A stretch of DNA of 64,000 bases from Vermamoeba vermiformis (GCA_045837725.1 JBEWZL010000163.1:1-64000), one strand, 5' to 3'; positions 1 through 37,505 are shown, counted from the stretch's first letter. Notes: generated by a model not told the origin, from the letters alone. Translations and numbers: made by a program.

Positions 1-11
1 TGATCATTCAC

Positions 12-887
12 ATGACCAGAGACAACTTCAAATTCAGCAAGAAGAAGAAATGCTACATCATTAGTCCAGACTTCAAGGAGAAGAAGCTCAGAAAGTTTGT
101 CAAGAAGATTCCTTTCCCTGCTGACTGTAATCCATTCTTCAAATTCTTTCTTGAGAAAGTTAGACCATTTTTGGTTCAAACTGACGAAGATCCTTTGGCT
201 CTTTGGCTTGGCTTTCAAAATGGCAACCCACAAGATCCTTCTGCTATGACTAGAGCTGTAGCCAAGTGCTGCGCAAAGATTATTCCTGGCACTCACATGA
301 CTTCTTTGCGTTGGAGACACTTGCTTGTCACTTTGGCCTACTTGGACGAATACATGGCTGGACTTGGCTCTCAGCAACAGTTTCTTCAAATGTTGGCCAA
401 TGTTCAAAACCACGATGTCGGCACTTTGATGCGCTACTACAATGATGCTGACGTCAATAACCAGGCAAACACTCTCATCAATCGCTTCAATGAAGATTAC
501 CTAGCCACTGAACAATCCAATGCTGCTGCTGCTCATGCAAGAAATGCCATTGGTTCCCATGATGATGGATCACAACTTGACTCTGCAGATGAAGTCCTTG
601 AAGACTTGCAGTCAATGTCTGAAGAAGAAGTCATCTACTCAGACAAGTACAGAGCCCAGTCTATTTCAGGCAAAATGTACAAAAACGGCCACCTCTACTA
701 TCAAGTGCAATGGGAAACTAGAGATCCAACTTGGGAGAGAATCACCAGCTTGAAGCAGTTCTTAGACTTGGTTGATCAGTATGAAGTCAAGATTTATACT
801 GAGCTTGAAGCTATTGTTCGAGCTAGTCCCAAGAAAAGAAAGAGATCTGGCAAGACCAAGGCCAACAAAAAGCCAAAAAAGCAGTAA
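12..887 (+). CDS. Tyrosine recombinase (Crypton/DIRS-like catalytic C-terminus) fused to a chromodomain and basic NLS; probably 5'-truncated by the window edge
   Basis: YR-like motifs LRWRHLLVT and LANVQNHDVGTLMRYY (R-H...H...Y); acidic linker; chromodomain-like YRAQSISGKMYKNGHLYYQVQWETRDPTWE...LVDQYE; PKKRKR NLS. Confidence 0.75.
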   Translation: MTRDNFKFSKKKKCYIISPDFKEKKLRKFVKKIPFPADCNPFFKFFLEKVRPFLVQTDEDPLALWLGFQNGNPQDPSAMTRAVAKCCAKIIPGTHMTSLRWRHLLVTLAYLDEYMAGLGSQQQFLQMLANVQNHDVGTLMRYYNDADVNNQANTLINRFNEDYLATEQSNAAAAHARNAIGSHDDGSQLDSADEVLEDLQSMSEEEVIYSDKYRAQSISGKMYKNGHLYYQVQWETRDPTWERITSLKQFLDLVDQYEVKIYTELEAIVRASPKKRKRSGKTKANKKPKKQ

Positions 888-998
888 TAACTAAATTTTC
901 CTGCTTTATTTTTCATCTTTTTACTATATACAGTCTTATACAGTCTTTATAGATAAATAAACTATCATTTTACTTATATTTGCTGGTTTTTTGACTGC

Positions 999-1094
999 AG
1001 GCAGGCCAAATTCTTGGCCCTGCCTGGAACTATTAAGCATGCTAATTTCTCCACTACTTTGAAACAAAGGCAGGCCAAATTCTTGGCCCTGCCT
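999..1094. repeat. Two copies of a 27-bp palindromic hairpin AGGCAGGCCAAATTCTTGGCCCTGCCT
   Basis: Identical copies at 999-1025 and 1068-1094, each nearly self-complementary. Confidence 0.85.
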
Positions 1095-1189
1095 TTTAAC
1101 TTTGTGGCTATCTATGCTAGTCTCATGTAGTATTTTACAGGCTTTGCCAGCGATGTTGCGTACAAGTTTTAGCCTGGAGTAGTATGTTT

Positions 1190-1475
1190 CTTATTAGGGG
1201 GGCAAGCCCCCCTAAACCCCCCATAATTAAAGGGGCCGCATTCGCGCCCCTAACGCCCCTTAAGATCATTTTGCACGCATTTTTGGCCATTTTCGGCAAT
1301 TTTACTGCTTTATTTCATATTAATATGCATGTACGTCCATATAATATGGTGATTCTTATTATTATTAGGGGGGCAAGCCCCCCTAAACCCCCCACTGGCT
1401 CACTTCGTTCGCCAGGGAATCTGCCCCTAACCCTCTTGCTTTTCTAGCCCTAACTTTACTCTTAGCCCTAACTCA
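1190..1475. repeat. Duplicated GC hairpin TATTAGGGGGGCAAGCCCCCCTAAACCCCCC followed by degenerate CCCTAA repeats
   Basis: Copies at ~1192-1222 and ~1363-1392; further hairpins GGGGCCGCATTCGCGCCCC and CTGGCTCACTTCGTTCGCCAG; CCCTAAC three times at 1426-1472. Confidence 0.75.
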
Positions 1476-3949
1476 ATTTACTCCCTTACTAGGATAGCCA
1501 CTGAAGTAAGACTGGTGCCGTTTTGAAGGCCTTTTGAAGTTCTATCCAACCATGCATCTAACTCTGGGATTGCTGCTACAAACCATATTTTCAACTTTAC
1601 CAAGGCACAGACCTTGGTGCAGACTCAGATCCAGGGATCAAATTGAGCTAACTTCAACACAGATCTGTTATACTACTTATATTAGCCATTACTCATTGCT
1701 TAAACACTTATTCCGAAGTCAAATACCAACTTCGGCACTTAATGTTTGGCACTGACTCTTACCAAGGGATTGGATCAAGCTGACTTCAACTCAAATCTGT
1801 TTTATTCTTCATATTCACTATGATTCCTTGGGTGAACATTGATTCTGAGGTCAAATCATAACTTGGGTACATGATTTTGAATCCTGGGTTAGGGTTGCCT
1901 CCTTTTGCCTATTATCAACTTGACATTTCAGCTTGAATCTATCAGATACACTGTTTATATCATGTTTTAATATGTTTCTGATTGATTTGACATAGATTTG
2001 AATCCAATCTCAAAGTTACAGTATGGCTGATCAGGGACTCAAATTCTTGAAGTGTAGGTCAACAATCGGAACAAGACAATACTATTATGATAAATATACA
2101 TAATTATAGTAACATAAGAATATGAAAGAGATTCATCAATCCAATATCACAGCTCTGAGATCCAGAGGCTAGCAGGATGCGTCAAAGGCTGCAACCATGC
2201 GATCTTTGTAGATATGGCATGGATCAATGACAATTCATATGAATATACTATTGTCCAATTATAAGCTGATTCTGAAATAAAAAAGCTGATGTCCAGATCT
2301 GGTGAGAAGGTAAACAAATTCTGGCTCTGTATTTTGGCTGTCAGAGACATGAGCAGATCAAGGGGTCCTATTGATATGGCATATATAACTAATAGTAAGG
2401 ACATCATGTACCAAATATGAATGGATTCTGTTGCCATGATGCGTAGACCAAATGCTAGCCCTAAGCAGTGAATGCTTCACTGCCACAAGCTTTTGCAGGC
2501 CTTCATGTGACACATCACAGACAGATCTTGATCACCAGTTTGGTATGCAAGGAGTCCTATGACTGAACTGTATATCAAAAGGAGTTCTGGATCTGCAAAG
2601 GACTTGGCGCAGGAGAGGCTGCAAATCTTTCACAAATACCTTAGCTCCAATACACAGATCCTTCTCTGTAACAGGAGTTTTTGCCATTTCCTGAGTGGTT
2701 GTATGAACTTCCACCACCTCCTGTAATCACCCCTGAAGGAACACCACCAACTCTGGATGAATCAGCCTGGCCAAAGTGTGTGAACCTAATCTGGATTATC
2801 AAGTTTTGGATGGAAGTGCAGCGGTGAGTGGTGCTGAAGAGTGGCTTGTGCCACATGAGCAGCTGTTGAATGATTGGCCAGGAAATTAACCGCTCGGAGG
2901 TGAGGGGCAGACCAAATATTTCTGTCATCCCAGAATGCATTCTTGCGTTGGATCAATGACACATGTAAATTACTCAATGAAATTTTATCAACTTTATACA
3001 GTTATCCACAAATAAGGCGCATGCAGCACTGCTGATTGACCACCGCAAATGGACAGCAATCACTTCTTCAGGGGCCATCAAATCGTCGTCGTTCAGTCTT
3101 GACATGTGGCAGCTTGGCCTCGAGATCGTGCTCATCCTCATCGACCATATGCGTGTTGTTCGTAGTGTTCGTGCCACTCACTGAGCGCACACCAGGGCTG
3201 CTTGGTCGACGGAATTTGTGGGAAATTTGATGAACAGATCAATATCTTCTTCGGTACTCGGTTTGACTCGTGTCACTGCGGTGTTTGCAATTGTGTGCGT
3301 GGATTGCCATGAACTGGCGCTGCTGGGACCATTGGTAGGTGGGTTGACCTGTTTCTTGTTGACAGGCACGTGCTTGGGCTCGTCAAAGTCAGGCTCAGGC
3401 GTGTCAGGCAAGTCACTCGTGTTGACCGCACTTTGACACGTGTCACTGCACGTGCTCTGATAGGCGTTTAACTCTGCTATCAACGCATCCTCGTCCGCAC
3501 AGTGCTCGTCCTCTTGATCACTGGTGGTGCACTCTGAGCACGTGCCTGCTTGCCCTCTCTCGACCAGGGCACTGGGTCCCTCAACTTGCGCGATGAGCTC
3601 GTGAAGTGCTGGTCATTCCACTTGATCTGATACATCTCGCATGCTGCACGCATCACCTGTGGCTGGTCAGTGCCACTCACACGCACATATCAGCACGCAC
3701 CTTGTTGCTAGAGCTTGGGTCGATCAGTGCCAGGTGCCGCACTTAGCTGCGCATTTAATTGCTGCTCTTGATTGCTTGCGGCACTTTAAAAATAACGGAG
3801 AGATCTCTTTATGGGAGCACTTTTACTATGTACAAGTCGCTATTATTGCTTGAACCATTACATTTGAAAATTGCTCGCGTGAGGTCTAGCGTTCTAAAAT
3901 AGCTAATCTCGATCCGCGAGGATTCAGTAAGTAAATTGAATGGAACTCT

Positions 3950-6900
3950 AGTTATATAAGCATATGTTAATAAATACATCATCATTATGAGCCAATAAAT
4001 TAACTTACATAATCTCTGCTAGCATATGTTCTCGAATCAATCCGCTCAAGTTGCGTCGTTTTTCATCGCACTGTCAACTGATTGAGCCGCTATATAAAAA
4101 AACGCGTTAGTACGTATGTAATATGATCTATTTTCAATACCTACCAGCCTTTTCTTTGTACCAATAAAATATTGAGCGCGATCAGATCACGCGTGCCTCG
4201 TGTCCATTCTTTCGCTTCCACCATAATGTATTGACAACGATTTTAATACATTCTAAATATTCTATAATGCACTATATATACTCACATTTCGTATTTCGCA
4301 GCCGTACTTTTGTCGGGGTTGATCCAAGATATAAGGCACCAAGCCACGTCACGTAAACAGGCCATCTAAACAAAAAGAATATTAAAATAAGTAATAAGTG
4401 CGTTATTGAATGTATTTTACTTACTTTGAAAGCCATCAGCAGCGAAATTTTAACATCGGATCGATCCGAATTGTTGCACTCAAAGGTCACACTGACCTTT
4501 ATCGGGCTATAACAACGTTATTACGTGATAGGTTAAACGATTTTACCTTACCTCGATCCATCAGTTCGCACATTTAAAATTTCAACGCGCTAGATCTCGT
4601 CACCGAATCCATCTACAAATTTATCCAAGACGGTTCTAATAATAATAAATGATGTTAGTACCTTATAATAATTTAAAACACTGTTTGACTTACTTTAAGC
4701 GCGAGTGATGCGCGCAATTATAATTTAAAAGTTTGATCCTGTGTACGACGCGAGGCCCACTGCAACCTATTTTTCAATGTTAATATTAATATCAGTTCAG
4801 CAAACTGTAATAACGATACAAAACGGGGAATACTTACTGTTAGAGCGTTCTATGCGCTACATCAAAACTTCTAAGATCTCGTACCTTCCGCGAATCCGTT
4901 CAAGTTGCGGATCGTACTTTTCAACTATAAGGATTATTTCATGCAATCTATTAGTAAATCATATTAGTAATTGTATTGTTTAATCGATTTGTGCTACTTA
5001 CGTCATTCCAACCTTCGCATTATGTGAGAATTGAGCGTCAGATAGCGCGTGCAACAGATCCGTGAAAACACTATAACGCGCTTAAACTATAAAAGAAACG
5101 ATATTAATGCGTTCCGGCTGATGCAAATAATTTCTACTTACTTTTAGCGCGATCGATGATGCGCGCAATAATTGCCGAAATTGGGGATCAACGAGGGGCC
5201 CCTCGTGGATCAGAGTAAAAGCATATTGAATCAACGCATTGCTCTGTAAAATACTCTATATTAGTACCTTAAAATAATAAATTATAACTATTTAACTTAC
5301 TCTTATGCTCTTAATGGCCCGCCAAGAAAATTTAGCGGATCAAGCCCGTACTTCTCAATCAGCTCCATCGGGCTCGATCGTTCGTGTGAGCATTCCTATT
5401 AATATAACGCGTTAGTACTTGGCTTGTTAATCGTAAATATTTACTTACCTTCAATATCTTTGTCTTCAACGGGAATTATCAACGCGCAAAGTAGACGATC
5501 TAGATCCGTGTTGAGTAACTTGTACCGCCTAAATAAAACGCATTAGATTATTAAATAACAATAGAATAAATGATTTAAACTACTTACGGTTGATTAATTA
5601 CCGGGAATCGAGAGATGGGTTTCGCGCTCGATCTAAAACTCGCACCAAAGTTCTGACTTTTAAATTGCCTATTAAATAACGATTAATATATTATGTTAAT
5701 TATAAAATAAACAACAATTTAAATTTTACACGAGCCCGAAGCTCGATCCGTATCTCGTAATTATTTAAATTACAAGAGTAATTTTAAATTTGAAAATGAC
5801 GCGTTCCTTGCGTCTAATTGAATGTTGTTATTATTGAAAAGTAACTTACGGAATATTTCGATGCGTCCAACGCATCCGATCTCGCCAACGTTACCGAACC
5901 CGTCGACGAGCAGTGGTGACCGTCCCTACAGAGTGATACGAACGAAAAGCACTACCATACGATATTACGACCATTGGTGGTCGAGATCTCGCGATCTGAA
6001 AGTGAGTAGAACTTTCGATCGCGCTAAAATTTCCTACGTAGAGTCTATATTAAAAAATAAACGTTAACATTAAGTAATTAGCGCCTTTGAACGCTATTTT
6101 ACTTGAGATTCGGATAAAACACGAGCACTAAGCTCGATCCGAATCTCGCAAGATTTTATTCAAAAAAATAAAAATCAAATTAAGAGTTGAATTATTTTAC
6201 AAATGGTGGAAGGGTATTTTTAAAAATATTACCTTGATTAAACTCGGTCACTGACCCGAGATTCGCACGACTTTAGATCCCGCTTTGAGTATCGCGCTGG
6301 AACGACGCTGATTGTCGTTTGGCGCGCGTGCATTGATAACAAACAACATATATAAATAACCAAATCGACCCTTGTGGTCGATCCGTCTAAGGTTTTAAAA
6401 ATACGTTCAAAATTGACGCGTGCGAATTTGACTTATCCGAAATGCCTCGCGCTGAAACGACATTGAAGTCGTGGCGCGTCACTAACAGGTGCTGATAATC
6501 AATACTGTCATTTGAAATAGCATCTACCTAATAATAGCAAATAAGTTCAATGTTTAATTCGACCCTTGCGGTCGATCTGTCGCAGACTTTAAGAAAAATT
6601 GACACGTGAGATCGGAGCTAAGTTCGAAATATTTATTAGTGCTAATAAAATATTAAGCGATCTGAGATCGCGTGTCTCGCATTCATTCCTTCACTCTTAT
6701 CTTAATGTTCTGTATTAAAAACGACGTTAGTACGTTCTAAAGGGGTTAATTATATATAATTAAACATACTTGCATTATTTTGAGGCAGCCGTACTTTTGC
6801 TGGCGATCCAAGTTGCGTCAAGGCAAGATCAACGTGTAATCAGGCCAGCTAAACAATAAATCGATTTTAGAATAATTAGTAAAAGCATTATTGAATATAA

Positions 6901-7520
6901 TTTACATACTTTAAGCCGTCAGAGCTCTTCACTAAAAAGTTCACGGACAGTCGACTTCGTGATCTAGAACGTCACGTCTGCGAATTTGCTTAAATAACCT
7001 ATGAAACAACGATTAATATATTGTATATTGTATTAATAATGTAATGAACAACAATTTGAATTTTACACGAGCACGAAGCTCGATCCGTATCTCGTAATTA
7101 AAATAACGAAATTATACAATATTTATATAAGAGGTGAGTGTATAAATATTACCTCGATTTGTCTTGGTCTATGCACAGAGATTCATGCATCAAGTCTTGA
7201 TCTCGCATTTTATCGCGCTGAAAGATATTTGGCGTTGATCCAAACCTCCAAATTAACTCGCGCTGAACGGCCATTCCGACCGTGGCGGCTACTGTCCGCT
7301 GTTAATAATCAAATAATAATAATATTACGACCCTTGTGGTCGATCTGTTGAGTTGCTAAGGGAAATGACGTGCGGAACTTCAGCATCGGCTCTAATCCGC
7401 CTTTACTAACTCGCTGGAACGGCTTTTGATGCCGAAGCGCGTACTATCAGGTGTAAATTAATATATAATAAATCAACCCGGCCTTGTGGTTGATCTGTTG
7501 TCTTGTGGTGCAGGATTAAC
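3950..7520 (-). other. Intron-dense, ORF-less, CpG/GATC-rich tract (spliced non-coding locus or decayed gene) with internal duplications
   Basis: Minus-strand GT...TACTAAY...AG introns, e.g. 4090-4140, 4636-4693, 5244-5300, 5396-5448; the exon checked (~4009-4089) has stops in all frames; 4165-4500 resembles 6644-7000. Confidence 0.55.
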
Positions 7521-8817
7521 GGTCACTTCCTTATTTAGTCACCACGTGGCCAAGACCGTCGTGTGTCGACGGTGAAAACCGACGTGTGTCGAGCGGCACG
7601 TGCTGCCAAAAATTGTGCTGGGATAAATCCTGGCACGATATTTCACACACGGTGACCGTTTTCATTAATTCGCAAGAACGCCAAGACCACCACAACCACA
7701 GTGGCCATGTAATTAATTTTCTTGTTATTTATTTTCTTGTTGTGACAACAACGCACCAGCAACAGCCAGGCCAAGTTTACCGTTGTGCACGATCGGCTGT
7801 CTGTTGCTCGTAACTTGTACTTGTACGTGCGTAGTGCACTGAGGTGAGTTTTCCTTCATTAATAACTTGGGGCAGAATTGATAATGGATTAGTTCTTATT
7901 TTTTAGATTTTTCAGCAGATGCGATCGGTTACAGGCCACGCGTTCTTCGAGCTCACTGCTGGGTCGGCACTTACGTGTTTCTGCGACTTAATTCAAAGAC
8001 GCACCCTTTTCGGGTGCCAGCCAACAAGTACGCTGCGTTTGGTAAGTACGAGAATTTTAAATCTGTAATTTTTAGATGCGCGGCATCTAATTTTTATTTG
8101 TTTATGTAGTGCTACTGGCCGCCTTGTTAGCGCCACGCGTTCCGAGAGCTTCAGTAGGACTGCTGGCTATCAAGCAACCTGTGTGAGGTAAGTCAGGTTG
8201 TTCTTAACTTCGATCCAACGAATCTGACCAGTCACAGGCAGTGTTTCCAACGCATAAACGGCAGAGGTACCAGCGCTAACCTTGCACCAGTCAGCATTGC
8301 CCAGCGCACCCATCAACCAAGCAGTGCCGTGCACGGCAACGCACTGACACCACATGGCACTCATGACAGGCCACTGCACGCTGCAACAAGCTTCTCATCA
8401 AACCCACGTCAGGTGCGTCGAATGATGTGTACGCATACTAGTATCAGCACTAACCTCACACCAGTAGCTTTGCCCAGCGCACCCATCAGCCGAGCAGTGC
8501 AAGTTCATTGAGCTGTTTGAGCACGCTGTTCACATTCACTGCCACACTGCGCATCACGCGTGACAGTTTAGCAGTGACAGCGCACTGCATGCTGATGACA
8601 CCGCACGCACCACTGTGCGCACTGCAGCAAGCTGCTCATCAAGCCTGATCACACACCATGTCATGAGCCCTCACCACACATCATGCTGTTCCGTGCTGGC
8701 ACTCACGCTCTCTGCCTCTGTGACTGGCTTGGGCACTCTCTCATCGCACTCTGTGCCCTGTCACTTCCTTGCCTGTGTCCAGCTAAATAAATAAGACGCA
8801 GATAGTTATGTCCCTGA

Positions 8818-9227
8818 GTTTGAAGGCTACACCCTTGTTCTAGCTTGTAAGGGTGTAGTTTCAAGGACTACGCCCCTGTTCTGGCTTGTGAGGGCGTAGT
8901 TTCGAGGACTACACCCCATTCAAGGTCACAAGGGCGTAGTTTTGAGGACTACGCCCCCGTTCTGGTTCGCAAGGGCGTAGTTTCAAGGACTACACCCCCG
9001 TTCTGGTTTGCAAGGGTGTAGTTTCGAGGACTACGCCCCCGTTCTGGTTCGCAAGGGCGTAGTTTTGAGGACTACGCCCCCTTTCTGGTTTGCAAGGGCG
9101 TAGTTTCGAGGACTACGCCCCCGTTCTGGTTCGCAAGGGCATAATTTCAAGGACTACGCCCCTGTTTGAAACTTCAGCCTCGTTCTAGTTCGCAAGGGCG
9201 TAGTTTCAAGGACTACGCCCCTGTTCT
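8818..9227. repeat. Tandem array of ~10 copies of a ~41-bp palindromic unit GTTTCGAGGACTACGCCCCCGTTCTGGTTCGCAAGGGCGTA
   Basis: Read directly; TACGCCC/GGGCGTA stem in each unit. Confidence 0.95.
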
Positions 9228-9310
9228 GCGGTGTTAGGGTGTTATTTGCCCTTCAGAACGCGAAACCCTAAACTGTAGTAACCTAATAAATACTATAAAC
9301 ACCCTTTAAT

Positions 9311-9655
9311 GCCTTTGCACCTGAGGCCGTCAGACCGTCTGACGCACCCCCCCTTGCCTGAGGCCATCAGACCGTCTGACGCACCCCCCCTTGCCTGAGG
9401 CCGTCAGACTGTCTGACGCACCCCCATCCCAAGGCCGTCAGACCGTCTGACGCCCTTTGCTGTTGCAGTGCATGACTGAGGGTGCAGGTGCAGGTGCATG
9501 TGCAATGCCTTTGCACCTGAGGCCGTCAGACCGTCTGACGCACCCCCCTTGCCAGAGGCCGTCAGACGGTCTGACGCCCTCCCCCTGTCCCAAGGCCGTC
9601 AGACTGTCTGACGCACCTCCCATCCCTAGGCCGTTAGACCGTCTGACGCCCTCCT
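9311..9655. repeat. Array of ~8 palindromic units GAGGCCGTCAGACCGTCTGACGCACCCCC
   Basis: CGTCAGAC/GTCTGACG inverted repeat in each unit; block itself partly duplicated (9311-9460 vs 9507-9655). Confidence 0.9.
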
Positions 9656-9747
9656 GCTGCACCAAGCACAAGGTTACCCATGTTTGAAGTACAATTTTAT
9701 TTTAAAAACTGGCCAGCCCTGGCCCTAAACACCCTTTAATCACACAG

Positions 9748-9866
9748 AAGACCAAGTGCTTGTTCAATGGTATGGCTGGCCTAAGAGGCAGGATTGGACA
9801 TGGGAATCAAAAGAACTAGTACAAAATCACAATGGAGAGCTGTATAATCAATATTTTTTATTGTAA
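9748..9866 (+). CDS. Chromodomain-encoding terminal exon (gene or remnant)
   Basis: After a CAG acceptor: DQVLVQWYGWPKRQDWTWESKELVQNHNGELYNQYFLL*. Confidence 0.6.
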
Positions 9867-10366
9867 TTGTGTAACTCTATAAAATTGCACCATAAACTCC
9901 CTCCGCTGACATTGTTGCATAACTGCTCTTATTTGTCTACGCAAGATACGCTTGCTCACTGATAGCTTTTACGTCATTGTCTGAAGGCTTGGACTGGTGC
10001 ATATGGTGTTCTTAATTATGCTCCTGATGGGAGAGTGGTCATAACGAGGCAAGGAGCATTTGGTAAGTTCGTTAAATTTTAAAATAATTTTCGAGAGCGC
10101 GGCATCTAACGTTCACCGTTTGTGTAGGGCAGCTGACCCGAACTACATAGTGCATATTACAAAGAGACTTTGGAGTATGTTTACTACAACTGAGCAGCAC
10201 TAGGTAAGTCAGTTTGAATTAGTTTTTTCGCATCTTTTAACGAATCTCCTGCGCATTCAATCAGAAGTTCTCCCAGCTTTACAACGAGCTCTCACGTGGA
10301 TACGAACATGGTCATTACAACCTGCCGTTGGCACATTACAACCCGTGGTAAGTTAGTGATCAGTCA

Positions 10367-10685
10367 CGACATCGTCTCCCGCTGGAGACGACCTCTGTCG
10401 GACTTAGTTTTTTTAGACATCGTCTCCCGCTGGAGACAACCTCAAAAGACTTTAATTTATTTTTGTTCGTGACCAGCGCGGTCACGAAGTTTTTGACTTA
10501 GTTTTTTTTAACATCGTCTCCCGCTGGAGACGACCTCGCAGGACTTAGTTTTTTCAGATGTCGTTTCCCCATGGAGATGACCTCCTGGACTTTAATTTTT
10601 TAGTTCGTGACCAGTGTCATGAAGTTTTGGACTTTATTTTTCTTAGTTCATGACCAGCATGGGCATGCAGTTTTTGACTTAGATT
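10367..10685. repeat. Interleaved hairpin repeats followed by T-tracts: CATCGTCTCCCGCTGGAGACGACCTC (x4) and GTTCGTGACCAGCGCGGTCACGAAG (x3)
   Basis: Read directly; lies between a GTAAGT donor (~10348) and a CTAAC...TTTAG acceptor (~10741). Confidence 0.85.
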
Positions 10686-10741
10686 TTTGTTACAACCTAT
10701 TGGACTTTAATTTTTAACTGTAGCTAACCCTTTATTTTTAG

Positions 10742-10838
10742 GTTTTTAGTTAAATGGGCTGGTTGGACAAATGATTACAACAAATGGTTACCAGAAGATG
10801 CTTTAGAATGTCCTGACTTGCTACAAAAATTCATGTAA
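10742..10838 (+). CDS. Chromodomain-encoding terminal exon
   Basis: FLVKWAGWTNDYNKWLPEDALECPDLLQKFM* after branch point and AG acceptor. Confidence 0.7.
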
Positions 10839-11799
10839 ATTAATCACTCCCTGATTTTATAAATAGAGAGTACAATTTATAAGTAAAATCAAAGTAAAAC
10901 TGCTGGTGAATGTATGCAGTCAAAAATCACTGTATTATTCATGCTGCCATTGAGTATGCATAAAATAGTGGCAGTAAGCCACATACCATAATTTCTGAGC
11001 TTATTCAGATGCAGCAAATTTAGTTTGAAGACAGATTCACCCGCCTTCAAATTAATTAGCAAAGAGTGAGCCTTTAAGATTATGGAGCAAACATACTCCA
11101 AGATAGAGAAGCGATTTGAATAAACGCACTCAAATCTGCTTCAGATGTGCAACCGAAGGTAGTTGCAGTGTTGGACCTTTGCAGTCCAAATAACTTACTG
11201 TCTTTGGCAGTAATTTTAAAAATAAATAAATGAGTAGTAGTGTTGCGTAATTGCGTCGTGAAAATTAAATTATTCGATCAGAACAAAAGTAATTCGTGAT
11301 GCGTAACACAACACCAACTCTTGGAGGGTTAATATATATATAAGCAATTACATATATGTTATTTTAATGGACGTATAGTCCACCGTAAGTCAAGCATTTA
11401 TGTCAATTGCGGGTGAGCAAATCTGGCAACAGGATCCACGGAAGATATATCAAAATTTGGTGCGTATATGTTAATAACTTGCTCGTTCATAACACAATTC
11501 AAAATTGGTAAACATTCCGATCAATTTGGACTGTGCTACAGAACAGCGAGGTAGAAAATTGAAATCTCTGTACTTTGTCCTGAAGCAAAGCTACTCGTGA
11601 GCATTGGGACTTCACGACCAATTAAAGTGTAATAAAAAAATTTTAGGGTTAGTTGTTCGTAATTTAGTATGTTGTTTCAATCGTTAAGAACTCCGTGTTC
11701 TCAACGAGCAATGTTTCATACGGAAATTTTTGGACACATCTCCTATTGATTTTACTAGGATTTATCCCTCAATGGTTTTTTCGTGTATTTTTTTGGATT

Positions 11800-12445
11800 T
11801 CCATCCCAAAGGATTTCCAAGGATTGCCATTTCTTCCATTGTTTCCATTGTTTCCATTGTTTCTCCCATTAAATTCCTTCCCTAGATTTCAGGATTCCAA
11901 AGATTTTGGAATCTAATAGAAAGTAAAAAGGCTCTAGGGTGCCCACAAAGGCGTTCATGAGACCTTCACTCTGCTCTGGCCTACAACAGGCCCCTAAACA
12001 ATCACAATGAACTAAAAGAATTATTGTATTTTTAATCTTCTACTGAATTACAAATTATACCAATAATTGCTACTGTTGGGGAAGAGAAATGCTTGTTAGC
12101 AACTGCCCAGCCAAGAAAGGTGATCACCTTTCTTTTTAGCACTCAATCCAAAGGCAAAACTAAAAACATGAATAAAATTCTTATTTCAAAGGAATCCAGT
12201 TTATTCCTTTAACTTCTCTTCTCCTTTAAAGCAAACATTTCCATTGTCTCCCATGATTTCCATAGGTTGTCCATTAATTTCCCTTTTTCACCCTAGATTT
12301 TAGGATTTCCAGTTTTTCTATATTTTCAATGGTTTTTCAAGCATTTTAAAGGATTTCCATTGTTTTCCAAAGGGTTTCCCAAAGGATTTCCAAGGATTTA
12401 TATGTTTTTCCATTGGATTTCCATTGTTTCCATTGTTTCCATTAA
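11800..12445. repeat. Low-complexity degenerate repeats (TTTCCATTG / AAGGATTTCC units) in two related blocks
   Basis: Blocks ~11800-11910 and ~12235-12445 share motifs including CCTAGATTT.AGGATT. Confidence 0.6.
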
Positions 12446-13896
12446 ATATCAGGAAGGGGAGTAAAAAATTAAAAAAAAAGCTCTACACTGGTCTAGTTTC
12501 CAGCATCCAGACATCCTCCCAACTAAACATCAGAACAGCTTATGAGCTTTTTTTGAAGTGTAGACATGGATTGTATTGAAATAAAACGGAAAGACAGATT
12601 GAGGTGTGGATCTGCTGGATATGCTGGATCTGCTGGGGCACATCCAGATCTGCACAGCTGTTGCCACCATGAGCCCCTTGGATTTTAGTGTAAATAAATA
12701 AGTAAATGTATGCCATTATGAAAAGAATAGACAGGTCATCTCTATTTTACCTCCATTACTGTAAACTGTGGAATAACTGGTAAAGTGGATATTTTTTTTG
12801 GTTCGTGCATTGGTAGTTCAACAACAATAGGCACAATTAATCAATCCTTCTTTCAAGTAACTGATTTCTTTCACGATCCGCTTGAGAAAATTCACCAAAA
12901 AATTTCTGAGGTATTTGGCAGGTTACAGCAATGTATTTCTCTGATGGCATTCATTAGCAGTTGTTGCTAATAAGGCTGCCTGTAATGCTAGCATTGATCG
13001 AATTAAAACTTTAATGAGATAGGATTCCAAGTTTAGCACTATTTGATTGTATCTTTAATGATAGTCTCAGCTTGCCTAAAAAATAGCATAATATTAAAAA
13101 AGATAAATATTAAAAATAAAAAGATTTTTTGCCATGGTCCAATGGGATATCTCATTTTTTTCTGAAGAGAAAGGGGAATGTTTTCATGAACCAAAACGGT
13201 TTCATGAAAATCATTATTTTAATTGGAATTTTCTGATATTTCTTTTTAAGATTGATTTATTTATTTAGGTAACATTTATTATTATTACTTTATGTAAGAA
13301 TGAATGACCATTAATAAAACGGAGTTGGTTAATCTTATTATTCAGACTTAATAATTCCAGACTTTTGGTGCGTGTATGTTCCTCAAGACTCTGGCCCCAA
13401 ATTAAACTCAAACATGCCAATCAGGGTATTAAGTATTTAAAACGAGTTGAGAAGCAATCAAATAATTTATTTAATTTTTTACATCTGGGGTGGTGCAAAA
13501 CCAAGTACTAAGAGACATAAAAATCCTTTTGATTTAAAAAGGGGCATAAATAAGATTCATGCTTTTATTAGTCCCTATAAAATCATTTTGAATTGATAAG
13601 GACTATTTAAGTTGTTTGGAGAAAGCTCTTGGGCAATTTCTCTTGATTGCCTATCCTTAAGCTCATTTACCACATTTGAAATTTGGAGTGCGTTACTACT
13701 ATCTACAAATCACTGTGCCAGTATTTAAATTGTCAACTTCAGCTCTGAAGGACTTGCTCTGGCTCATTATCACATGAACAATCAGACTTAAAGCAGTTAA
13801 ATGGCAACAAGCAAAAATGAACGATATTTGAACTGTAGAATTTTTATTTAAATTTGTAAGATTGGGATACTTCAAAAACATTTCAATTCAGAGAGT

Positions 13897-15435
13897 TTAC
13901 TTGTACTGGGCAGATTGATAGTTCTCCAGCAATATTTTGCTTTCAATGGACGTTGTAAATTTAGCATGGACCTGGTTTCTTGCTTTTGTGTATTTTAAGT
14001 AATCAAAGTATTGCCAAAATTCATCTGATGTCATATATGTCACTGCGTAAAACCATTTCCGTCCTCCAACTTGAAAGGCTTTTTGTTCAAGGGCCTTTTG
14101 ACATTGCAAAGTATTCTTTTCTTCAGCTGCAATCCCATATATCCCAATATTCAAAAAAAGAGTGTCATTGTTATTTGTTGGGTAAGGGAACAAATTGCGA
14201 CTGGCAAACTGTTTGGGGGAGACAACTGGGCACAGCCACAAGGGATAAACTGTTACATTTTCATCAAGGTAATCAATAAGCTCTTTTGCTTTTGATATGG
14301 GAACATAATAGTCTTGAACATATCTTGTAGTTTCCCGATACTCATCTGTGTTTCTGAAAATCTTGTTGATAATTGATCCAATGTAAAACAAGCTAGAGGC
14401 AGTACTAATCTTGCCAAACAGCAACCGACTCCACCATGAATGAGGAAAATGGTATGAGGCTATCCAAAAGCATCCTAAAGTATAAAGAAAGAATAAGTTT
14501 GGAACTTTCATTCTTGATTTACCTCTATCGTAACGGAAAAGATACTCCTCAGTTTTCATGAATACTTTTTGTCCAATTTTCTGAATCCTCCAAGCAAACC
14601 ATTGAGAAAACCACCACTTTTGAGATATTGTTTCTGAGCCACCATTCTTTGATGTAAATTTTCCATCAATTATAAGAATCTGGTTCTTGTCATACTGGAT
14701 GGCATCCAGAAAATCAGAGCTACTGTCTTCTGATTTGGATTGAAGAATGTTGATAGCAGATTGAACATCCCCAAATTTTGTTAAAGTTAATTCAACATAG
14801 GGTTTTGCTTCCATAATTCTGAACGTAATGGAAGTTATTATTCCTAGTGTATTGAAAGATCCTGCAAGAGAGTAAAAGAGCTCTTCATTTTCATTTTGAG
14901 AAACTGTGAGTAATTCTCCATTATAAGTGACCAATTCATATTCCAGGCAACAACAATGAAAAAATCCATGCCTTTGTGCAAAGTTAGAATCACTATAAAT
15001 ATTGTCATCTCATTACCTGAAGCTGCTACTTTCAATTCCAAGCCCATTGACTGCCCCACCTAATGTTATTTCTCCGAACTCAGGAATGACAGCAGGGCAG
15101 AAGCCTGCCTTTAAAAGTTCCATGGTAACCTTTCTGAATGTTATGGATGGCTCAGCGACACAAACCATTCTTTGACTGTCAATTTTTAAGACACTATCCA
15201 AGTTGGATACAGGAATTTTTGTACTTTTCGATTTGTAAGTTAATGTTCTTAATGTGTGCGCCATTGCTTGGGTTCTACTGGTAGTAACAGACTTGTTCTC
15301 TGAGTATGCATTTGCTGCAACCCTTCTGATGATTTCCACTTTTTTTGAGTGTGGAATTTGGTGCTTAGTCTTTCCAAGTACATAAGTAGTAAACCAAATT
15401 CCAAATATCAATATTAAAATGCCTTCAACAACCAT
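13897..15435 (-). CDS. Delta(24)-sterol reductase-like FAD-binding oxidoreductase (2 introns)
   Basis: PAVIPEFGEITLGGAVNGLGIESSSFRHG, LAGSFNTLG, EYLFRYDRG, YPLWLCP, GGRKWFYA motifs of the DHCR24/DWF1 family; introns ~15016-14972 and ~14522-14475. Confidence 0.88.
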
Positions 15436-16122
15436 TTTTTTGCATGTACAAGACAAGATTAATCTTACCCTTGAACAAAAATATTCAAACAAAAAATATT
15501 TTCTAGTTAAAATAATAATCAGATTATATTCAGCTGATTATCAGAACAGAAACATATCGTCCCAAAAAAAGCTATATTTTTTGGTATCTAAAAATTTGAT
15601 AAAGCCGTTTTAGTTTTGGGAGTTGACTAATTAAGATGTGGTAAATGATGTATTGATTAAGTAGTTTGATGCAAACCAGGAATTTTTAACAAGAATAATT
15701 GTGCTGAATAAATAAATTTGAGTGGAGAAGATTCTTTTGAACTACTACAGACTGGGTAGGTAATCAATTCACAGCAAAATCTGGAAGCTATTTTCATCAT
15801 CTTGCAAAGCCAATGTGGGTGGGAAGAGTTTTCTTTTACTGCAAGCTAACACTGAGATCTGTCCTTATTCCGGTCAGTTAGACTTTGTGACATTAAAATA
15901 AGGTTTGAGGGCTTCAGTAGTTTGGCATGCCAAGTTAGGAAGTATTTCTGGGCCTTTTGTTCACTCAAACACTGTTTTAAAGAGAAGTTGTAAAAGAGAA
16001 GTCATCCAAAATGATGCCAGTGGTTTATGAAAATAGACAAATTTACTCAAAGAAAACAGCATTATAATGATACAATACAAACAATTTGTGCTGGCCAACC
16101 TGCTCATACTTGAAGAAAATTT

Positions 16123-20631: not shown

Positions 20632-21393
20632 ATGGCAAAGGTAGCAATTCTTGTTCCTTTTCGTAACCGGCACCAGCACCTTCAAGAATTTCTTCCATTG
20701 ATGGAGCAGTTTCTACATGCTAAACAGATAGATTTCAAAATTTTTGTTTTAGAACAAACGGTAGGCAAGCCATTTAATCGTGGTAAACTTCTAAACTGTG
20801 GTCATGTTGAAGCTAAAAAAGAAGGCTGGAATTATTTGATCTTTCATGATGTGGATACTATTCCTATTGACCCCAGTTTGAATTATGGACCACCTGTCAC
20901 AGCACGGCAAATATATGCCCCTCATGATAATTCTCTGGGAGGATTGGTTGCTGCTATTAACCCAGAATTTTTTGAAAAAGTGAATGGTTTTTCAAACGAA
21001 TACTGGGGTTGGGGTTATGAAGATAATGACTTGAAAATGCGCTTCCTTAATTGCGGGATTGTTCCAGACTATTCTGAGACAAGGTTCAGGAAAGGAGAGA
21101 AGGATCCAGAAGAAATAAAGCAAACTAAAGAGAAGGATGGGTTCATGCAACTTGGGCACATTCACTCCTTTTTTCAAGAAGTTAAAGAAACAGAGGGCAT
21201 TGATATATCCCAAGAATCACTGGAGGTTTTGGAAAAAAAGTTTGATAGCACCAACAAAACACAGCATACTCTAGAAGATTTTAAAAGAAATTCGGAAAGG
21301 CAATGGCAAAGTGGTCTAAATACCCTCAATTATCGTATTGTTTTGAGGCAATTTGTATCGGATAAAACTGAATGGCTACAATTGGAAATTTAA
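20632..21393 (+). CDS. Glycosyltransferase family 7 (beta-1,4-galactosyltransferase-like), intronless, no TM anchor
   Basis: AILVPFRNR, FNRGKLLN, FHDVD, GFSNEYWGWGYEDND. Confidence 0.9.
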   Translation: MAKVAILVPFRNRHQHLQEFLPLMEQFLHAKQIDFKIFVLEQTVGKPFNRGKLLNCGHVEAKKEGWNYLIFHDVDTIPIDPSLNYGPPVTARQIYAPHDNSLGGLVAAINPEFFEKVNGFSNEYWGWGYEDNDLKMRFLNCGIVPDYSETRFRKGEKDPEEIKQTKEKDGFMQLGHIHSFFQEVKETEGIDISQESLEVLEKKFDSTNKTQHTLEDFKRNSERQWQSGLNTLNYRIVLRQFVSDKTEWLQLEI

Positions 21394-23432: not shown

Positions 23433-24188
23433 ATGTCCCACAAGTTAGCAATTGTTGTTCCTTACAGAGACAGACGTCAGCACTTGGAAAGATTCATCCC
23501 ACATTTCCAGAAATTTTTCTTGGGCTCATCCATTGTCTATCATATCTTCATAATTGAACAAACAGACTCAAAACGCTTCAACAGAGCTTCGTTATTAAAC
23601 ATTGGGTGTAAAATAGCAATGTCTCAAGGATTTGACTATTTTGCACTCCATGATGTTGATACTCTGCCTTCTTCAAAAACTATTGATTATTCTTACCCTC
23701 TTTGCCCCAGGCACTTATATGGTCCAAAAACCACAGCAGGGGGTGTAATGTTGATAAATTCTGCCGATTATCTAAAATGTAATGGAATGTCTAACAAGTA
23801 TTTTGGCTATGGGAGAGAAGACTTTGATTTTAGAAAAAGAATGGAAATAGTTGGTCTTTCATTTGATCAGTCTCAACACGTTGAACGTGTTGACTCTAAT
23901 GAGCAGCATGAAATAGAAGTTTCTGGCTGGATTTTACTTCCTCATAAGCACTCTTTTTTGTACAATGAGGGGAGGTTTACTCCTGAAGAGATTGCTGCCC
24001 TTGAGAACGGAACAGAAGGTTCAGACTTTGTGATCGAGCGTTTCCAACAGTCTGACAATTGGATTGTTTTTAAATACTTTGAGGAAAATCCTGACCTTTT
24101 CAAAGAAGATGGGCTGTCATCTCTTTGTTATAAAGAGATGTTTATGTCTACTCAATCTAATGTAACAACAGTAGGGGTCGAACTCTAG
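23433..24188 (+). CDS. Glycosyltransferase family 7, second paralog, intronless
   Basis: AIVVPYRDR, FNRASLLN, LHDVD, GMSNKYFGYGREDFD. Confidence 0.9.
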   Translation: MSHKLAIVVPYRDRRQHLERFIPHFQKFFLGSSIVYHIFIIEQTDSKRFNRASLLNIGCKIAMSQGFDYFALHDVDTLPSSKTIDYSYPLCPRHLYGPKTTAGGVMLINSADYLKCNGMSNKYFGYGREDFDFRKRMEIVGLSFDQSQHVERVDSNEQHEIEVSGWILLPHKHSFLYNEGRFTPEEIAALENGTEGSDFVIERFQQSDNWIVFKYFEENPDLFKEDGLSSLCYKEMFMSTQSNVTTVGVEL

Positions 24189-27066: not shown

Positions 27067-28815
27067 TTATTGAGTGTTGCTTCTATTACGAATGGATTCT
27101 GTTTTTGGTGGCTGTTGAAGCTTAAAAAGACTTGCAAACATTCCTTCCCTCTGCATTAGCTCGCTAAATTTACCCTGTTCAACAACTGATCCTGAATGCA
27201 ATACATAAATGTTGTCACACTTAATAACAGTGTTTAACCTGTGAGCCAAAATTAAAACAGATATTCCGAGTTTTCTCAACCCAATAATTGTTTCTTGCAC
27301 TTGGCGTTCTGCAATCGCATCCAATGCACTAGTTGGCTCATCCAAAAGTAGTAACTTGGGTTTTCTTAATAATGCCCTTGCTAAAGCAACTCTTTGTTTC
27401 TGCCCTCCAGAAAGCGTGGTTGGTTTTATGAAAGTTTTGTATCCTTCTGGTAACTCCATTATAGCATCATGAATTCCGGCTAGTTTAGCAGCATACTCTA
27501 CGTCATTGAGGGAGAACTCTGTAGCCCCAATACAGATATTATCTTGCAGAGTACCGGAAAAAATAAATGGCTCTTGAGGTACATATCCAATGTTAGATCT
27601 TAGGGTGTGTTCTGGAAGCTTCTTAAGATCAACACTTCCAAATGTTATTTCTCCTTCATAATTTTTATAAAAGTTTAACAGCAAACATATAATTGTGGAT
27701 TTGCCTGCTCCACTTGGTCCTACCAGAGCAACAACATTTCCTTCAGGAATACTTATAGAGACCTCTTTTAGAACTTGTTGACTTGAGTTCTTGTACTTAT
27801 AACTAATTGCATTCATTTCCAATGAAAAGTTAGTCAAATTTTCAATGTTTTCTGCAACACCTTCATTGGCATATTTAGTTCCTTCAATAGTGCCAAAGAA
27901 AGTTAAGGCAGCTTTTGATGCTCTGGTAAAATCCATGACTCTTATTGATAAATTCCGTATAACAAAATTGCAATTAATGACTGCTGTAACTAGCACTGAC
28001 ACCTGGCCAACAGTATTTTCTCCTTGTGACAGGGAATAGTAACCTAGCCAGGCCACCAAAACACAAACACCAGTTGAAAAAAGAGTCACCACTGAAGTTG
28101 ACATTGTTTGAATGCTTATGACTTTTCTTTCCACATTTTCCAACTTTTTTAGCTCTTCACCAAATCGAGAAGCAATGTCACTCTCAGCTGAGAACGCCTT
28201 CACTGATTTGATACCATTCAATGTTTCAGGAACAACAGAGACACTTGAGCTTAGAGCATTAAACCTTTGTATTTGAAGCTTTCCAGCTTTTCGTTGTGGA
28301 AACAGAGCAACAAAGAATACAATTATACCAATTCCTAAAACCACAACTCCATATTTCCAGTTATAATAAAATAACAGTATTACATAATACACAACATTCA
28401 AAGCTGCCACTGCAACCACTGGAACTGAATCTTTGGTGACATTTGCAATTACATCAACATCATTGGATATCGATGTTACCACACGGCCAACTACTTTTGA
28501 CTCTAAATCTTCCAAGCAAAGTGATAATAATGTAGTAAGCATGAATGCTCGAAGTTTCAAGGCCAGTTTGGAAGCATAAGAGCTAAAAATTAATAGAGAA
28601 AAAGACGAAACCAGAACAGAGAGTACCGTGTATCCAGCAAACAGATACAAGGTTATGTAAACAGCTTCTGTGGATACGCTTAGAGCGTCTATGTACATTC
28701 CAATTATGAAGGATAATCCAGGTAGAAGGGCTCCATTCAGTAGAGTTATACCTCCTCCTACTGCAAACAGAGATTTATTGGTATAAAGCGAGTAGGCTTT
28801 CAATAACCGGGTCAT
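27067..28815 (-). CDS. ABC transporter, ABCB-type half transporter (TMD-NBD), intronless
   Basis: GPSGAGKS, LSGGQKQR, LLLLDEPTSALD, AHRL; N-terminal TM domain. Confidence 0.93.
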   Translation of the reverse strand: MTRLLKAYSLYTNKSLFAVGGGITLLNGALLPGLSFIIGMYIDALSVSTEAVYITLYLFAGYTVLSVLVSSFSLLIFSSYASKLALKLRAFMLTTLLSLCLEDLESKVVGRVVTSISNDVDVIANVTKDSVPVVAVAALNVVYYVILLFYYNWKYGVVVLGIGIIVFFVALFPQRKAGKLQIQRFNALSSSVSVVPETLNGIKSVKAFSAESDIASRFGEELKKLENVERKVISIQTMSTSVVTLFSTGVCVLVAWLGYYSLSQGENTVGQVSVLVTAVINCNFVIRNLSIRVMDFTRASKAALTFFGTIEGTKYANEGVAENIENLTNFSLEMNAISYKYKNSSQQVLKEVSISIPEGNVVALVGPSGAGKSTIICLLLNFYKNYEGEITFGSVDLKKLPEHTLRSNIGYVPQEPFIFSGTLQDNICIGATEFSLNDVEYAAKLAGIHDAIMELPEGYKTFIKPTTLSGGQKQRVALARALLRKPKLLLLDEPTSALDAIAERQVQETIIGLRKLGISVLILAHRLNTVIKCDNIYVLHSGSVVEQGKFSELMQREGMFASLFKLQQPPKTESIRNRSNTQ

Positions 28816-29479
28816 CTTGAATTTAATGCACACCTGGCATTTTAAGCTACCCACAATTGTGGCCACAAATGTTATTTAATTTAAATTATTGGAAGAAAAA
28901 CAGATGACCAAAAAATGGATGCGTATATTCTGAAGAAATTTTGACAGCACAAGTTAGGAGTTGATTTGCCTTATCCCCTCCCTGCTTTAGCCATCGAAAA
29001 ATATTCCGCTAGGGGAAAAATCTTCTTCCTATGATCTTGTCATCACATTATGTGCAAGCAATAAAATCATCAAGTTGCTCTTTTTAGTTTTTGGTGAAAT
29101 ACCCTTAATTTTGTTGTGCCTTGTCCTCATAATTAAAAGAAACGAGCACACCAAAACCAGAAAAAAACCGTAAAAAAAACAGGGACATCAGCATTCATCA
29201 ATACCTTCATGGCAAATTTTGGTGGTTACCGACTCAGCATTTTGCTGAAACTCTGAGCATAGCAAGATTTTACAGCAATGTGATTGATAGCAATTGTTTC
29301 TTAGAGAACAGGAATGAAGAATCCAAAGCAAAAAATCAACATAAAGTCAGACCGACCCAGTATACCTAAATATTTCAATATCCAGGGTTATTTAATAGTG
29401 TGAACTTAATTTTTGAGGGTTTTTTCAACGCTACTTTTTTTGGCTGTAAAGGCTTGATCATTTTTTGCAATATAGAGGA

Positions 29480-31877: not shown

Positions 31878-32789
31878 CTAAATATTTTCTCCTTCAAATC
31901 CAGCCAAGCACAGTATTGTTTTTGTGAAGTACTGCTTTTCTAAAGGTTTTTGAGTGAACTTAGGAAGCTGAGTAACCTCAGGAAAGTAGGATGTTACTTC
32001 ATAAATTTCGTGTGGCAGATGTGCAGTCATGGCACCACTCAAAAATGCCTTTCTCTTCTTTTCTAATTCTTCAGGTGAGGCAAAGCTACGAGGTGTCATG
32101 CATATGTACAAGCCTAGCCTGATCCCTTGAGGAATAATGGGCTCTTGACCCCAGTGAACTAATCTACTATCCCATAAGACAAAGTCTCCTTTTTTGCACC
32201 GCACTTTAATGGCAGGCGAATCAGAAAAGAACTTTGCAACTTCTTCACTGGAAAACATTTTGGTCCGAGAAGCTGTTCCATAGAATTCCCCATTGGAAGA
32301 AAAAAGGAAATCATGTTTCTTGTGGGACTTGGGAATTACATAAGTCCCTCCAGCTAATTCAGCTTCAGAGTCAGTTAAAGCAAGAAAGCCTTGTACACAT
32401 CCAAAGCCTGGCTTTGTTTGGTCAACATGTGGCCATGCCGGTCTAGCCTCTTCTGGCAATCTTGGGACAGCAACATTGCACCCATCAAAGCTCACTAGCA
32501 AGTCCTCTTCCGCAATATTCCATATTTTTGCAAAGATTGCCATAACATTTTTGTGTGTTCTTGCCTGCCACATGAAATTTTCATGACCAATGGAATGATT
32601 TAGTACCCCATATGCATAGTCAGGACTCAAACTTCTCTTCCAATCCAAAGGATCCTGGGTAATATTATATTTTGATTCTAAGTATTGCCATAAACAACCA
32701 GCAAAATAATTCACTTCTTGTTCTGTCAAAACAGATTGTACAACTGTAAATCCATTATCTTGTAAATCTTGCAAATGTCCACTGTCCAT
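31878..32789 (-). CDS. Phytanoyl-CoA dioxygenase (PhyH)-family Fe(II)/2OG dioxygenase, intronless
   Basis: NGFTVV, WPHVDQ (HxD), KGDFVLWDSRLVHWG, R..LYICM. Confidence 0.9.
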   Translation of the reverse strand: MDSGHLQDLQDNGFTVVQSVLTEQEVNYFAGCLWQYLESKYNITQDPLDWKRSLSPDYAYGVLNHSIGHENFMWQARTHKNVMAIFAKIWNIAEEDLLVSFDGCNVAVPRLPEEARPAWPHVDQTKPGFGCVQGFLALTDSEAELAGGTYVIPKSHKKHDFLFSSNGEFYGTASRTKMFSSEEVAKFFSDSPAIKVRCKKGDFVLWDSRLVHWGQEPIIPQGIRLGLYICMTPRSFASPEELEKKRKAFLSGAMTAHLPHEIYEVTSYFPEVTQLPKFTQKPLEKQYFTKTILCLAGFEGENI

Positions 32790-37357: not shown

Positions 37358-37505
37358 CAATTTGATGGAATACATGATGTTATGTAGAAAGTAGACAAAT
37401 GAATTGTTCAGTCCACTCAACCCACTTCCATTTATTTGAAAAAAATATATATTTTTCTGGATAGTTTGACAGTTGAGAGCAGTTCTTTTATTTATTACTG
37501 GAATA

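Follow-up and report, generated by a model that had tools for sequence, protein, structure and literature searches.

Chromodomain-guided integration is documented for DDE integrases, and the same has been suggested for a single family of giant elements in fungi that use a tyrosine recombinase (YR). The integrases of chromoviruses (Ty3/Gypsy) carry a C-terminal chromodomain with a presumed tethering function (Gao et al. 2008, as cited in other papers). The Enterprise Starship captain Kirc is described, in the accessible part of its report, as a DUF3435 YR with a zinc finger and a C-terminal CHROMO domain (Vogan et al. 2021, PMC8092012), and chromatin-guided insertion has already been proposed for captains of the Enterprise family (PMC8092012; Gluck-Thaler & Vogan 2024, PMC11162782; excerpts of both). 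It is the one published architecture combining a YR and a chromodomain that was found in the full-text literature. Cryptons are described in the available text of Kojima & Jurka 2011 (PMC3212892) as elements in which the YR is the only enzyme, which lack terminal inverted repeats, have terminal direct repeats of 4–6 bp, and are thought to excise as circles. Extra C-terminal domains vary among Crypton clades, with GCR1_C present in CryptonF, and YR sites consist of two inverted repeats around a spacer of 6–8 bp (PMC3212892, same text). That text mentions no chromodomain, as six of its six matches to “chromo” are “chromosome” or similar. Full-text searches, which did not extend to Repbase and subscription journals, found no paper on a chromodomain-bearing YR DNA transposon that is Crypton-like or comes from outside the fungi. 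A 64,000-nucleotide stretch of DNA from the amoeba Vermamoeba vermiformis (GCA_045837725.1 JBEWZL010000163.1:1–64000), which was analysed as a whole and is called the window, begins within an element that is best read, with a probability of about 60%, as a YR DNA transposon resembling Cryptons, from a rare and divergent lineage, the recombinase of which has a chromodomain for chromatin tethering.

Positions 1 to approximately 1433 of the window most likely cover the 3′-terminal third of a compact DNA transposon with a single gene and a length of about 4–5 kb, the only enzyme of which is most likely a very divergent YR of about 690–730 amino acids. The C-terminal part of a YR, an acidic linker, a chromodomain, and a tail resembling a nuclear localisation signal are all found in one open reading frame (ORF), as the first-pass annotation of the sequence had described. 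The parts of the gene are listed below in window coordinates; P0002 is a full-length relative with 62% identity, and pLDDT is the predicted local distance difference test of AlphaFold.

3–887, plus strand: 3′ part of the YR-chromodomain gene, 294 codons, with the stop codon at 885–887.
3–512, plus strand: C-terminal part of the predicted YR catalytic domain (residues 1–170), beginning six residues past Arg-I, placed by the fold of P0002 and by motif alignment.
81–83, plus strand: K27, the putative β-hairpin catalytic lysine of the EK..R box, equivalent to P0002 K386 and at least 90% conserved.
315–317, plus strand: R105, the putative Arg-II, equivalent to P0002 R464 and at least 90% conserved, with Leu at −3.
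411–413, plus strand: H137, directly after the conserved N136, at the His-III position, where most distant relatives have Thr.
438–440, plus strand: Y146, the putative nucleophilic tyrosine, equivalent to P0002 Y505 and at least 90% conserved in alignments A1 and A2.
552–638, plus strand: acidic linker, residues 184–212, with 10 D/E and no K/R among 29 residues and low pLDDT.
633–827, plus strand: chromodomain, residues ~211–275, with three predicted strands and a long C-terminal helix.
822–884, plus strand: basic tail with KKRKR, residues 274–294, with 11 K/R among 21 residues.

No stop codon interrupts the frame from 885–887 back to the window edge, and the ORF thus runs off the start of the window. 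The ATG at position 12, at which the gene had previously been taken to start, is merely the first in the frame; homologues already align from residue 1. Protein P0052 (685 amino acids) is identical to the window protein in 292 of 294 positions (99%), with window residue 1 corresponding to P0052 residue 392. Therefore, about 1.2 kb of the gene (at least 391 codons) lie upstream, outside the window; within it are the final 43% of a protein that has 685 amino acids or more. A gene model from another contig, P0051, suggests about 45 additional N-terminal residues. The best homologue of the window protein has an expectation value (E) of 2.8e-135, which is far beyond chance.

The recombinase fold was assessed on P0002, with an alignment of 31 sequences supplied to AlphaFold, because the model of the window protein alone did not recover any YR match in VIA or Foldseek; the YR domain in the window is truncated, and chromodomains filled the lists of matches. 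The P0002 model (pLDDT 81.6, predicted template-modelling score 0.71) was aligned by VIA-align to XerA (Z 15.7), XerH (Z 15.2; 322 residues, root-mean-square deviation 4.8), the integron integrase IntI (Z 14.8), Tn1549 Int (Z 14.1), and Cre (Z 13.8), and lambda Int was matched as well. These similarities span P0002 residues 140–522, which correspond to the core-binding and catalytic domains, and residues 285–529 match the catalytic domains of YRs and type IB topoisomerases; named recombinases, integrases, or type IB topoisomerases account for 17 of the 18 best VIA matches. Foldseek returned 19 PDB matches at E ≤ 1e-3, led by XerA (E 1.2e-4) and Cre (E 1.9e-4, template-modelling (TM) score 0.61). 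The 27 BFVD matches at E ≤ 1e-3 are mostly named integrases of phages and archaeal viruses; an algal-virus protein named as a tyrosine recombinase is also among them, as are viral proteins without a name. The predicted structure of P0002 thus shows the YR fold. Xer, Cre, IntI, and Tn1549-type recombinases, the best structural matches over both domains (Z 13.8–15.7), have R, K, R, H, and Y in common with the family. By contrast, sequence identity to them is only 8–12%, PF00589 is not matched, and the family protein adds an N-terminal region of about 130 amino acids and a putative chromatin-reader tail.

Conservation within the family follows the predicted active site. P0002 residues E385, K386, R389, R464, N495, and Y505 are each at least 90% conserved among 31 sequences, and the boxes recognisable in the alignment are GGQR (Arg-I), EK..R, [TS]P..[FLW]R[RH] (Arg-II), and N[HT][SD] followed by Tyr. 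The GGQR box lies six residues before the start of the window and is present in the 99% identical P0052. The distant member P0026 matches the integrase family phrog_1 (E 3.3e-5) and XerC/XerD (E 0.003–0.006); NCBIfam and PHROGs were silent for nine of the ten family members tried. Of 30 named neighbours in the Atlas, 22 belong to clusters in which 15–16% of the members contain PF00589 (score 0.96). The Atlas matches of the window protein alone reached scores of only 0.85–0.86 and were treated as leads, not as evidence.

The Pfam Chromo model (PF00385) matches the window protein with E 0.08 and 13.3 bits, under its gathering cut-off of 25.1, and all five matches at E ≤ 1 in a search against PDB sequences are chromodomains. 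Significant Pfam Chromo matches occur at the same C-terminal place in P0005, P0006, P0009, P0015, and P0019, the recombinase parts of which align too. A profile of 25 family members finds the chromodomains of CDY1, Oxpecker, Rhino, and HP1, with E from 1e-9 to 1e-8. In the AlphaFold model of the window protein, pLDDT averages 77.6 and is ~95 over residues 218–274, with blocks of that level at 221–270. VIA-align superimposes this model on Rhino (Z 10.3, root-mean-square deviation 1.4 Å over 61 residues), Oxpecker (Z 9.4), and SUV39H1 (Z 9.3), and Foldseek matches Oxpecker with E 8e-4 and a TM score of 0.83. In the model, the protein has the chromodomain fold, a three-stranded sheet packed against a C-terminal helix. 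Both domains named in the first-pass annotation were thus recovered by structure prediction, the YR fold on P0002 and the chromodomain, which the family profile finds too, on the window protein. The basic tail that follows resembles a nuclear localisation signal and presumably functions as one. In P0022, a distant member, the C-terminal position of the chromodomain is taken by a PBZ zinc finger (PF10283, E 2.3e-5), which suggests that the C-terminal tails of the family may be interchangeable.

The fusion is like that of chromovirus integrases in that the enzyme by which a mobile element integrates, or here would integrate, carries a C-terminal chromodomain. Unlike the chromovirus DDE (rve) integrases, which act on linear DNA, the window enzyme is a predicted tyrosine recombinase. 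The integrases of Polinton/Maverick elements belong to the same comparison. As in Kirc and other Enterprise captains, a eukaryotic YR with a core-binding domain is followed by a C-terminal chromodomain; unlike in those captains, DUF3435 is not matched in the Pfam tables listed, and there is no zinc finger between the two domains. Furthermore, the window element apparently measures about 4–5 kb and has one gene, whereas Starships are cargo elements of tens to hundreds of kilobases. The chromodomain was probably acquired independently of that of the Starship captains.

The family is rare: among 1.84 billion representative proteins, no more than 29 reach E ≤ 1e-3 with the window protein, and eight reach E ≤ 1e-10. 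A word-based search of 5.8 billion clusters found eight close relatives, all unnamed, on contigs of 2–8.9 kb, and a further word-based protein search with alignment A2 added only one fragment. Full-length relatives, which start with a conserved N-terminal region of their own, are located on contigs of 2.7–8.4 kb, and a tblastn search of phage records gave no match. The family represents YR genes that are missed by standard domain annotation.

Sequencing run X1, which bears the organism's own label, contains a 1109-nt contig over 111–1220 with 14 differences from the window and a k-mer depth of 481, a value that in Logan contigs is not equal to copy number; four contigs from the flanks have no differences and depths of 223–260. 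Nine of the differences are in the ORF, eight of them at third codon positions. Seven of the nine are synonymous, and the two replacements are exactly those of P0052. The contig suggests at least one further, slightly different copy that is kept under selection. A 5176-nt contig from a water metagenome (X3) covers 1–1220 and reaches about 3.9 kb beyond the start of the window. Beside the element, 1743–2412 is a high-copy repeat with a k-mer depth of up to 8046 in X1, compared with about 240 in the unique flanks.

The only related locus for which DNA was found, in a search with alignment A3, is the 4347-nt metagenome contig L001, the protein of which is 65% identical to P0002 and 67% identical to the window protein. 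Between the window and L001 ORFs, the proportion of synonymous differences (pS) is 0.83, which is saturated, and that of nonsynonymous differences (pN) is 0.20; in the chromodomain alone pN is 0.19 and pS 0.92. Therefore, both the YR and the chromodomain are under purifying selection. The long ORF of L001 has a frame shift between its segments 849–1274 and 1205–2923, and it is the only enzyme of the contig: neither a reverse transcriptase (RT) nor any other enzyme was found in the six other or partial ORFs scanned. The 848 nt upstream of the ORF consist of tandem 44-nt repeats. Between its ends, L001 has neither a terminal inverted repeat nor a long direct repeat. On its minus strand, at 3238–3830 between the 3′ hairpins and the conserved word described below, L001 has one or more additional antisense ORFs without a Pfam match.

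The non-coding sequence downstream of the gene contains features that are shared with L001:

998–1026, plus strand: first GGCAGG..CCTGCC palindrome, downstream of the stop codon (z −4.4).
1066–1096, plus strand: second GGCAGG..CCTGCC palindrome (z −4.7).
1193–1222, plus strand: first copy of a 30-nt word, 100% identical to L001 4153–4182, a candidate recombination or terminal site.
1364–1393, plus strand: the 30-nt word repeated without change, 171 nt downstream of the first copy.
1423–1433, plus strand: predicted 3′ terminus of the element (GCCCCTAACCC), equal to the last 11 nt of L001.

The two hairpins of the GGCAGG..CCTGCC type occupy the same relative place after the stop codon in L001. 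The 30-nt word consists of a 22-nt palindrome (TTAGGGGGGC AA GCCCCCCTAA, with 10-nt arms around AA) and a further C6, and its two copies are the only ones in the window, against 0.00 expected. Close to the other end of L001, at 49–76, there is a related G7-AAA-C7-ACA-C6 word, and a degenerate copy is located at about 4238–4272; all five copies, two in the window and three in L001, are on the ORF strand. The word is non-coding and is conserved against a saturated synonymous background. IMG/VR contains neither a relative of the family nor an exact match to the 26-nt core of the word. The 171-nt duplication of the word at 1195–1385 has a depth of 118.6 in X1, compared with 481 for the element contig, and most copies of the element are probably without it. 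The 3′ end of the element is placed near 1433, because the end of L001 matches 1423–1433 and because two contigs of run X1 follow the window to 1434 and then diverge.

The organisation fits the Crypton picture: judged by L001, the YR is the sole enzyme, and the element is compact, with no RT and no long terminal repeats. The likeness is one of organisation. DUF3504, which characterises CryptonA, was not matched in the Pfam tables listed, and the DUF3504 structure of QRICH1 reached only Z 6.5. Unlike Cryptons, the family is without the box-II His of the R-H-R-Y tetrad, and the ends would carry a palindromic word of 22–30 nt rather than 4–6 bp direct repeats alone.

As a Crypton-like transposon, the element would encode a protein with, in order, an N-terminal region, a core-binding domain, a catalytic domain with R, K, R, H, and Y, the acidic linker, the chromodomain, and the basic tail. 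The tail would carry the protein into the nucleus, where the recombinase may bind palindromes located towards the ends of the element; among these, the conserved 22-nt G6/C6 palindrome is the leading candidate and is found in direct orientation near both ends of L001. The element would be excised as a circle and re-integrated by site-specific recombination through Y146, and the chromodomain would tether the enzyme to nucleosomes and bias integration, most likely towards silent, repeat-rich chromatin. We infer mobility, the recombination site, the circular intermediate, chromatin targeting, and the reading of histone marks from the comparisons above. The first-pass annotation had proposed a YR element that reads methyl-histone marks to select its insertion sites. 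The mobile element remains the best reading, but the premise that chromodomains are not standard in Starship recombinases is countered by Kirc, as both the YR-chromodomain combination and the idea of targeting are already in print in the available parts of those papers. If the reading of the locus as a chromodomain-bearing Crypton-like transposon is correct, it represents a second, apparently independent fusion, and different transposition chemistries would have converged on chromatin tethering. With its single protein of about 700 amino acids and a candidate 22-nt site, the element would also be a small and accessible system for asking whether histone marks can steer a site-specific recombinase.

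Several observations weigh against this reading. The box-II His (HxxR) is absent from the entire family; the window has Leu three residues before Arg-II, relatives have Ala, Ser, Val, or some other residue that is not His, and the catalytic competence of the recombinase is thus not guaranteed by its sequence. No Pfam YR model, PF00589 included, matches the window protein at E ≤ 1, and PF00589, DUF3435, and DUF3504 do not match any of the 29 homologues at E ≤ 0.01. Among 25 of the 30 Pfam families listed for 31 members at E ≤ 10, none is a YR model; the five others each matched at most one member. The second copy suggested by run X1 could be an allele or a strain variant, and the doubled depth is no direct measure of copies. 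L001 is a single, frame-shifted contig, and its antisense ORF is not present in the window copy. The 5′ end of the window copy is outside the window, and the positions of the element ends are deduced from one contig and from loose contig ends. Contigs of both X1 and X3 break at 1220; these breaks follow trivially from a local exact duplication of 33 nt and were rejected as element ends. Finally, the third aromatic residue of the chromodomain cage is removed by a three-residue deletion in nine of nine close relatives.

That deletion also speaks for the strongest alternative, which is possible but less probable than the preferred one: the element is as described above, and the chromodomain is not a methyl-lysine reader but binds another protein, RNA, or DNA, or mediates multimerisation, in the manner of chromo-shadow or cage-less chromodomains. 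Chromo-shadow domains match the window model at Z 8.0–8.1. To our knowledge, the chromodomains of plant-type chromoviruses are without cage residues. By contrast, the best structural matches are the H3K9me3-bound Rhino, Oxpecker, and SUV39H1 (Z 9.3–10.3), and two cage residues, Y216 and W237, are retained together with the preceding acidic stretch. The cage positions were assigned through the alignment with Oxpecker and through those of HP1. All three aromatics are present in six of six distant chromodomain-bearing relatives, with P0008 ambiguous. Because the third cage residue is deleted in the subfamily, methyl-lysine reading by the window chromodomain is unproven. The two-aromatic cage of the subfamily and the three-aromatic cage of distant relatives provide a natural contrast.

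More tentatively, the family may constitute an undescribed superfamily of eukaryotic YR DNA transposons that is invisible to the Pfam YR models (PF00589, DUF3435, DUF3504), has no box-II His, carries interchangeable chromatin-reader tails (a chromodomain in many members, the PBZ finger in P0022), and would recombine at a conserved palindrome with telomere-repeat-like half-sites, TTAGGGGGGC AA GCCCCCCTAA, and that may home to telomere-like or CCCTAA-rich DNA. In support of this reading, 8 of the 25 CCCTAA/TTAGGG hexamers of the 64-kb window are located in 1194–1471. Two of the eight, at 1448 and 1466, are beyond the predicted end of the element. The cluster may point to a target or core that resembles telomere repeats.

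Strong purifying selection on both domains would also be expected of a domesticated host gene, that is, an immobile YR-derived chromatin protein the chromodomain of which serves a host function. The family-wide loss of the box-II His together with the loss of one cage residue might follow such a change of function, the apparent copy number is low, and Crypton-derived host genes are known (PMC3212892, PMC13465315; available text of each). However, two RNA-seq runs with the same species label, of about 13 million reads each, have no read on 1–2948, and the YR-chromodomain gene was silent in both. The gene is situated in a gene-free, repeat-rich stretch, and its relatives form at least seven clusters of about 60% mutual identity on short contigs of many runs. 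Non-coding terminal words have been kept between divergent relatives, a second variant that differs by about 1.3% is present at about twice the depth of the flanks, and none of the catalytic residues R, K, R, H, and Y has been lost. Domestication is therefore unlikely. RNA-seq reads of runs X13 and X15 at 3074–3143 and 3557–3601 match only partially (90–95%) and then diverge from the window; their source is transcription of related repeats at other loci and not of the window locus.

It is still less likely that the gene encodes a captain and marks the 5′ edge of a large Starship-like element, whose cargo would be, for instance, the intron-free and CpG-poor block at 12–40 kb of the window. The gene does point into the window, the published precedent for a YR with a chromodomain is a Starship captain, and the block is compositionally odd and full of glycosylation-type genes. 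Nevertheless, the sequence shared with L001 and with other X1 contigs stops near 1433, the depth drops past 1220 and swings widely, from 118 to 8046, and a CpG-rich stretch at 4–8 kb (observed/expected ratio, o/e, 1.6–1.9) separates the gene from the block. The relatives are on contigs of 2.7–8.4 kb, and DUF3435 was not matched by the 29 homologues or among the Pfam families listed for 31 members.

A recombinase of a DIRS, Ngaro, or VIPER retrotransposon with RT/RNase H upstream of the window is highly improbable: the upstream part of the window copy is unseen, and the X3 contig extends about 3.9 kb past the window start where the ORF needs only ~1.2–1.3 kb, but the weak RVT_1 match on the window protein (E 0.085) overlies the YR domain with 13 bits against a cut-off of 29.6 and was rejected as noise, the tandem repeats upstream of the L001 ORF hold no RT, none of the 29 library homologues has an RT domain, and the N-termini of the full-length proteins form a conserved region of their own.

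The surroundings of the Crypton-like element agree in part with the earlier description of a CpG-poor compartment rich in transposable elements: the richness in such elements is a fair description, the poverty in CpG holds only in part. The region 888–13,500 is free of recognisable genes, has no ORF of at least 150 amino acids, and contains many tandem and palindromic repeats. Of its 26 ORFs with at least 70 amino acids, 15 were scanned and gave no match in Pfam. The depletion of CpG is patchy: o/e is 0.27 in the ORF (GpC o/e 1.24), 0.30 in 1–2000, 1.6–1.9 in 4001–8000, 0.23–0.43 in 12–40 kb, and ~1.0–1.3 in 40–56 kb. The ORF of L001 is CpG-poor too, with o/e 0.48. Repeat arrays at 5660–7127, 8792–9247, 9308–9656, and 10353–10715 include 41-nt units, 37-nt units with a GGCCGTCAGACCGTCTGACG palindrome, and others.

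The block at 12000–40000 consists of long intron-free ORFs and has a sharp compositional edge near 40 kb. It may represent an island of transferred or viral DNA, or else a compartment that is methylated. Genes assigned in it are the following:

13897–15492, minus strand: FAD_binding_4-like gene.
20632–21393 and 23433–24188: two Glyco_transf_7 (B4GalT-like) genes.
27067–28866, minus strand: ABC transporter.
31878–32789, minus strand: PhyH.
32918–33667: GT2.
36419–37357: UDPGT.
37473–38465: polysaccharide pyruvyl transferase.

In the CpG-normal part of the window, an ORF at 48395–49534 on the plus strand encodes an eEF1A/HBS1-like GTPase with GTP_EFTU domains. An ORF at 55664–56854 on the minus strand encodes a piggyBac-like transposase (DDE_Tnp_1_7, E 3.4e-11), and the 2-kb bin in which it is located has a CpG o/e of 0.43.

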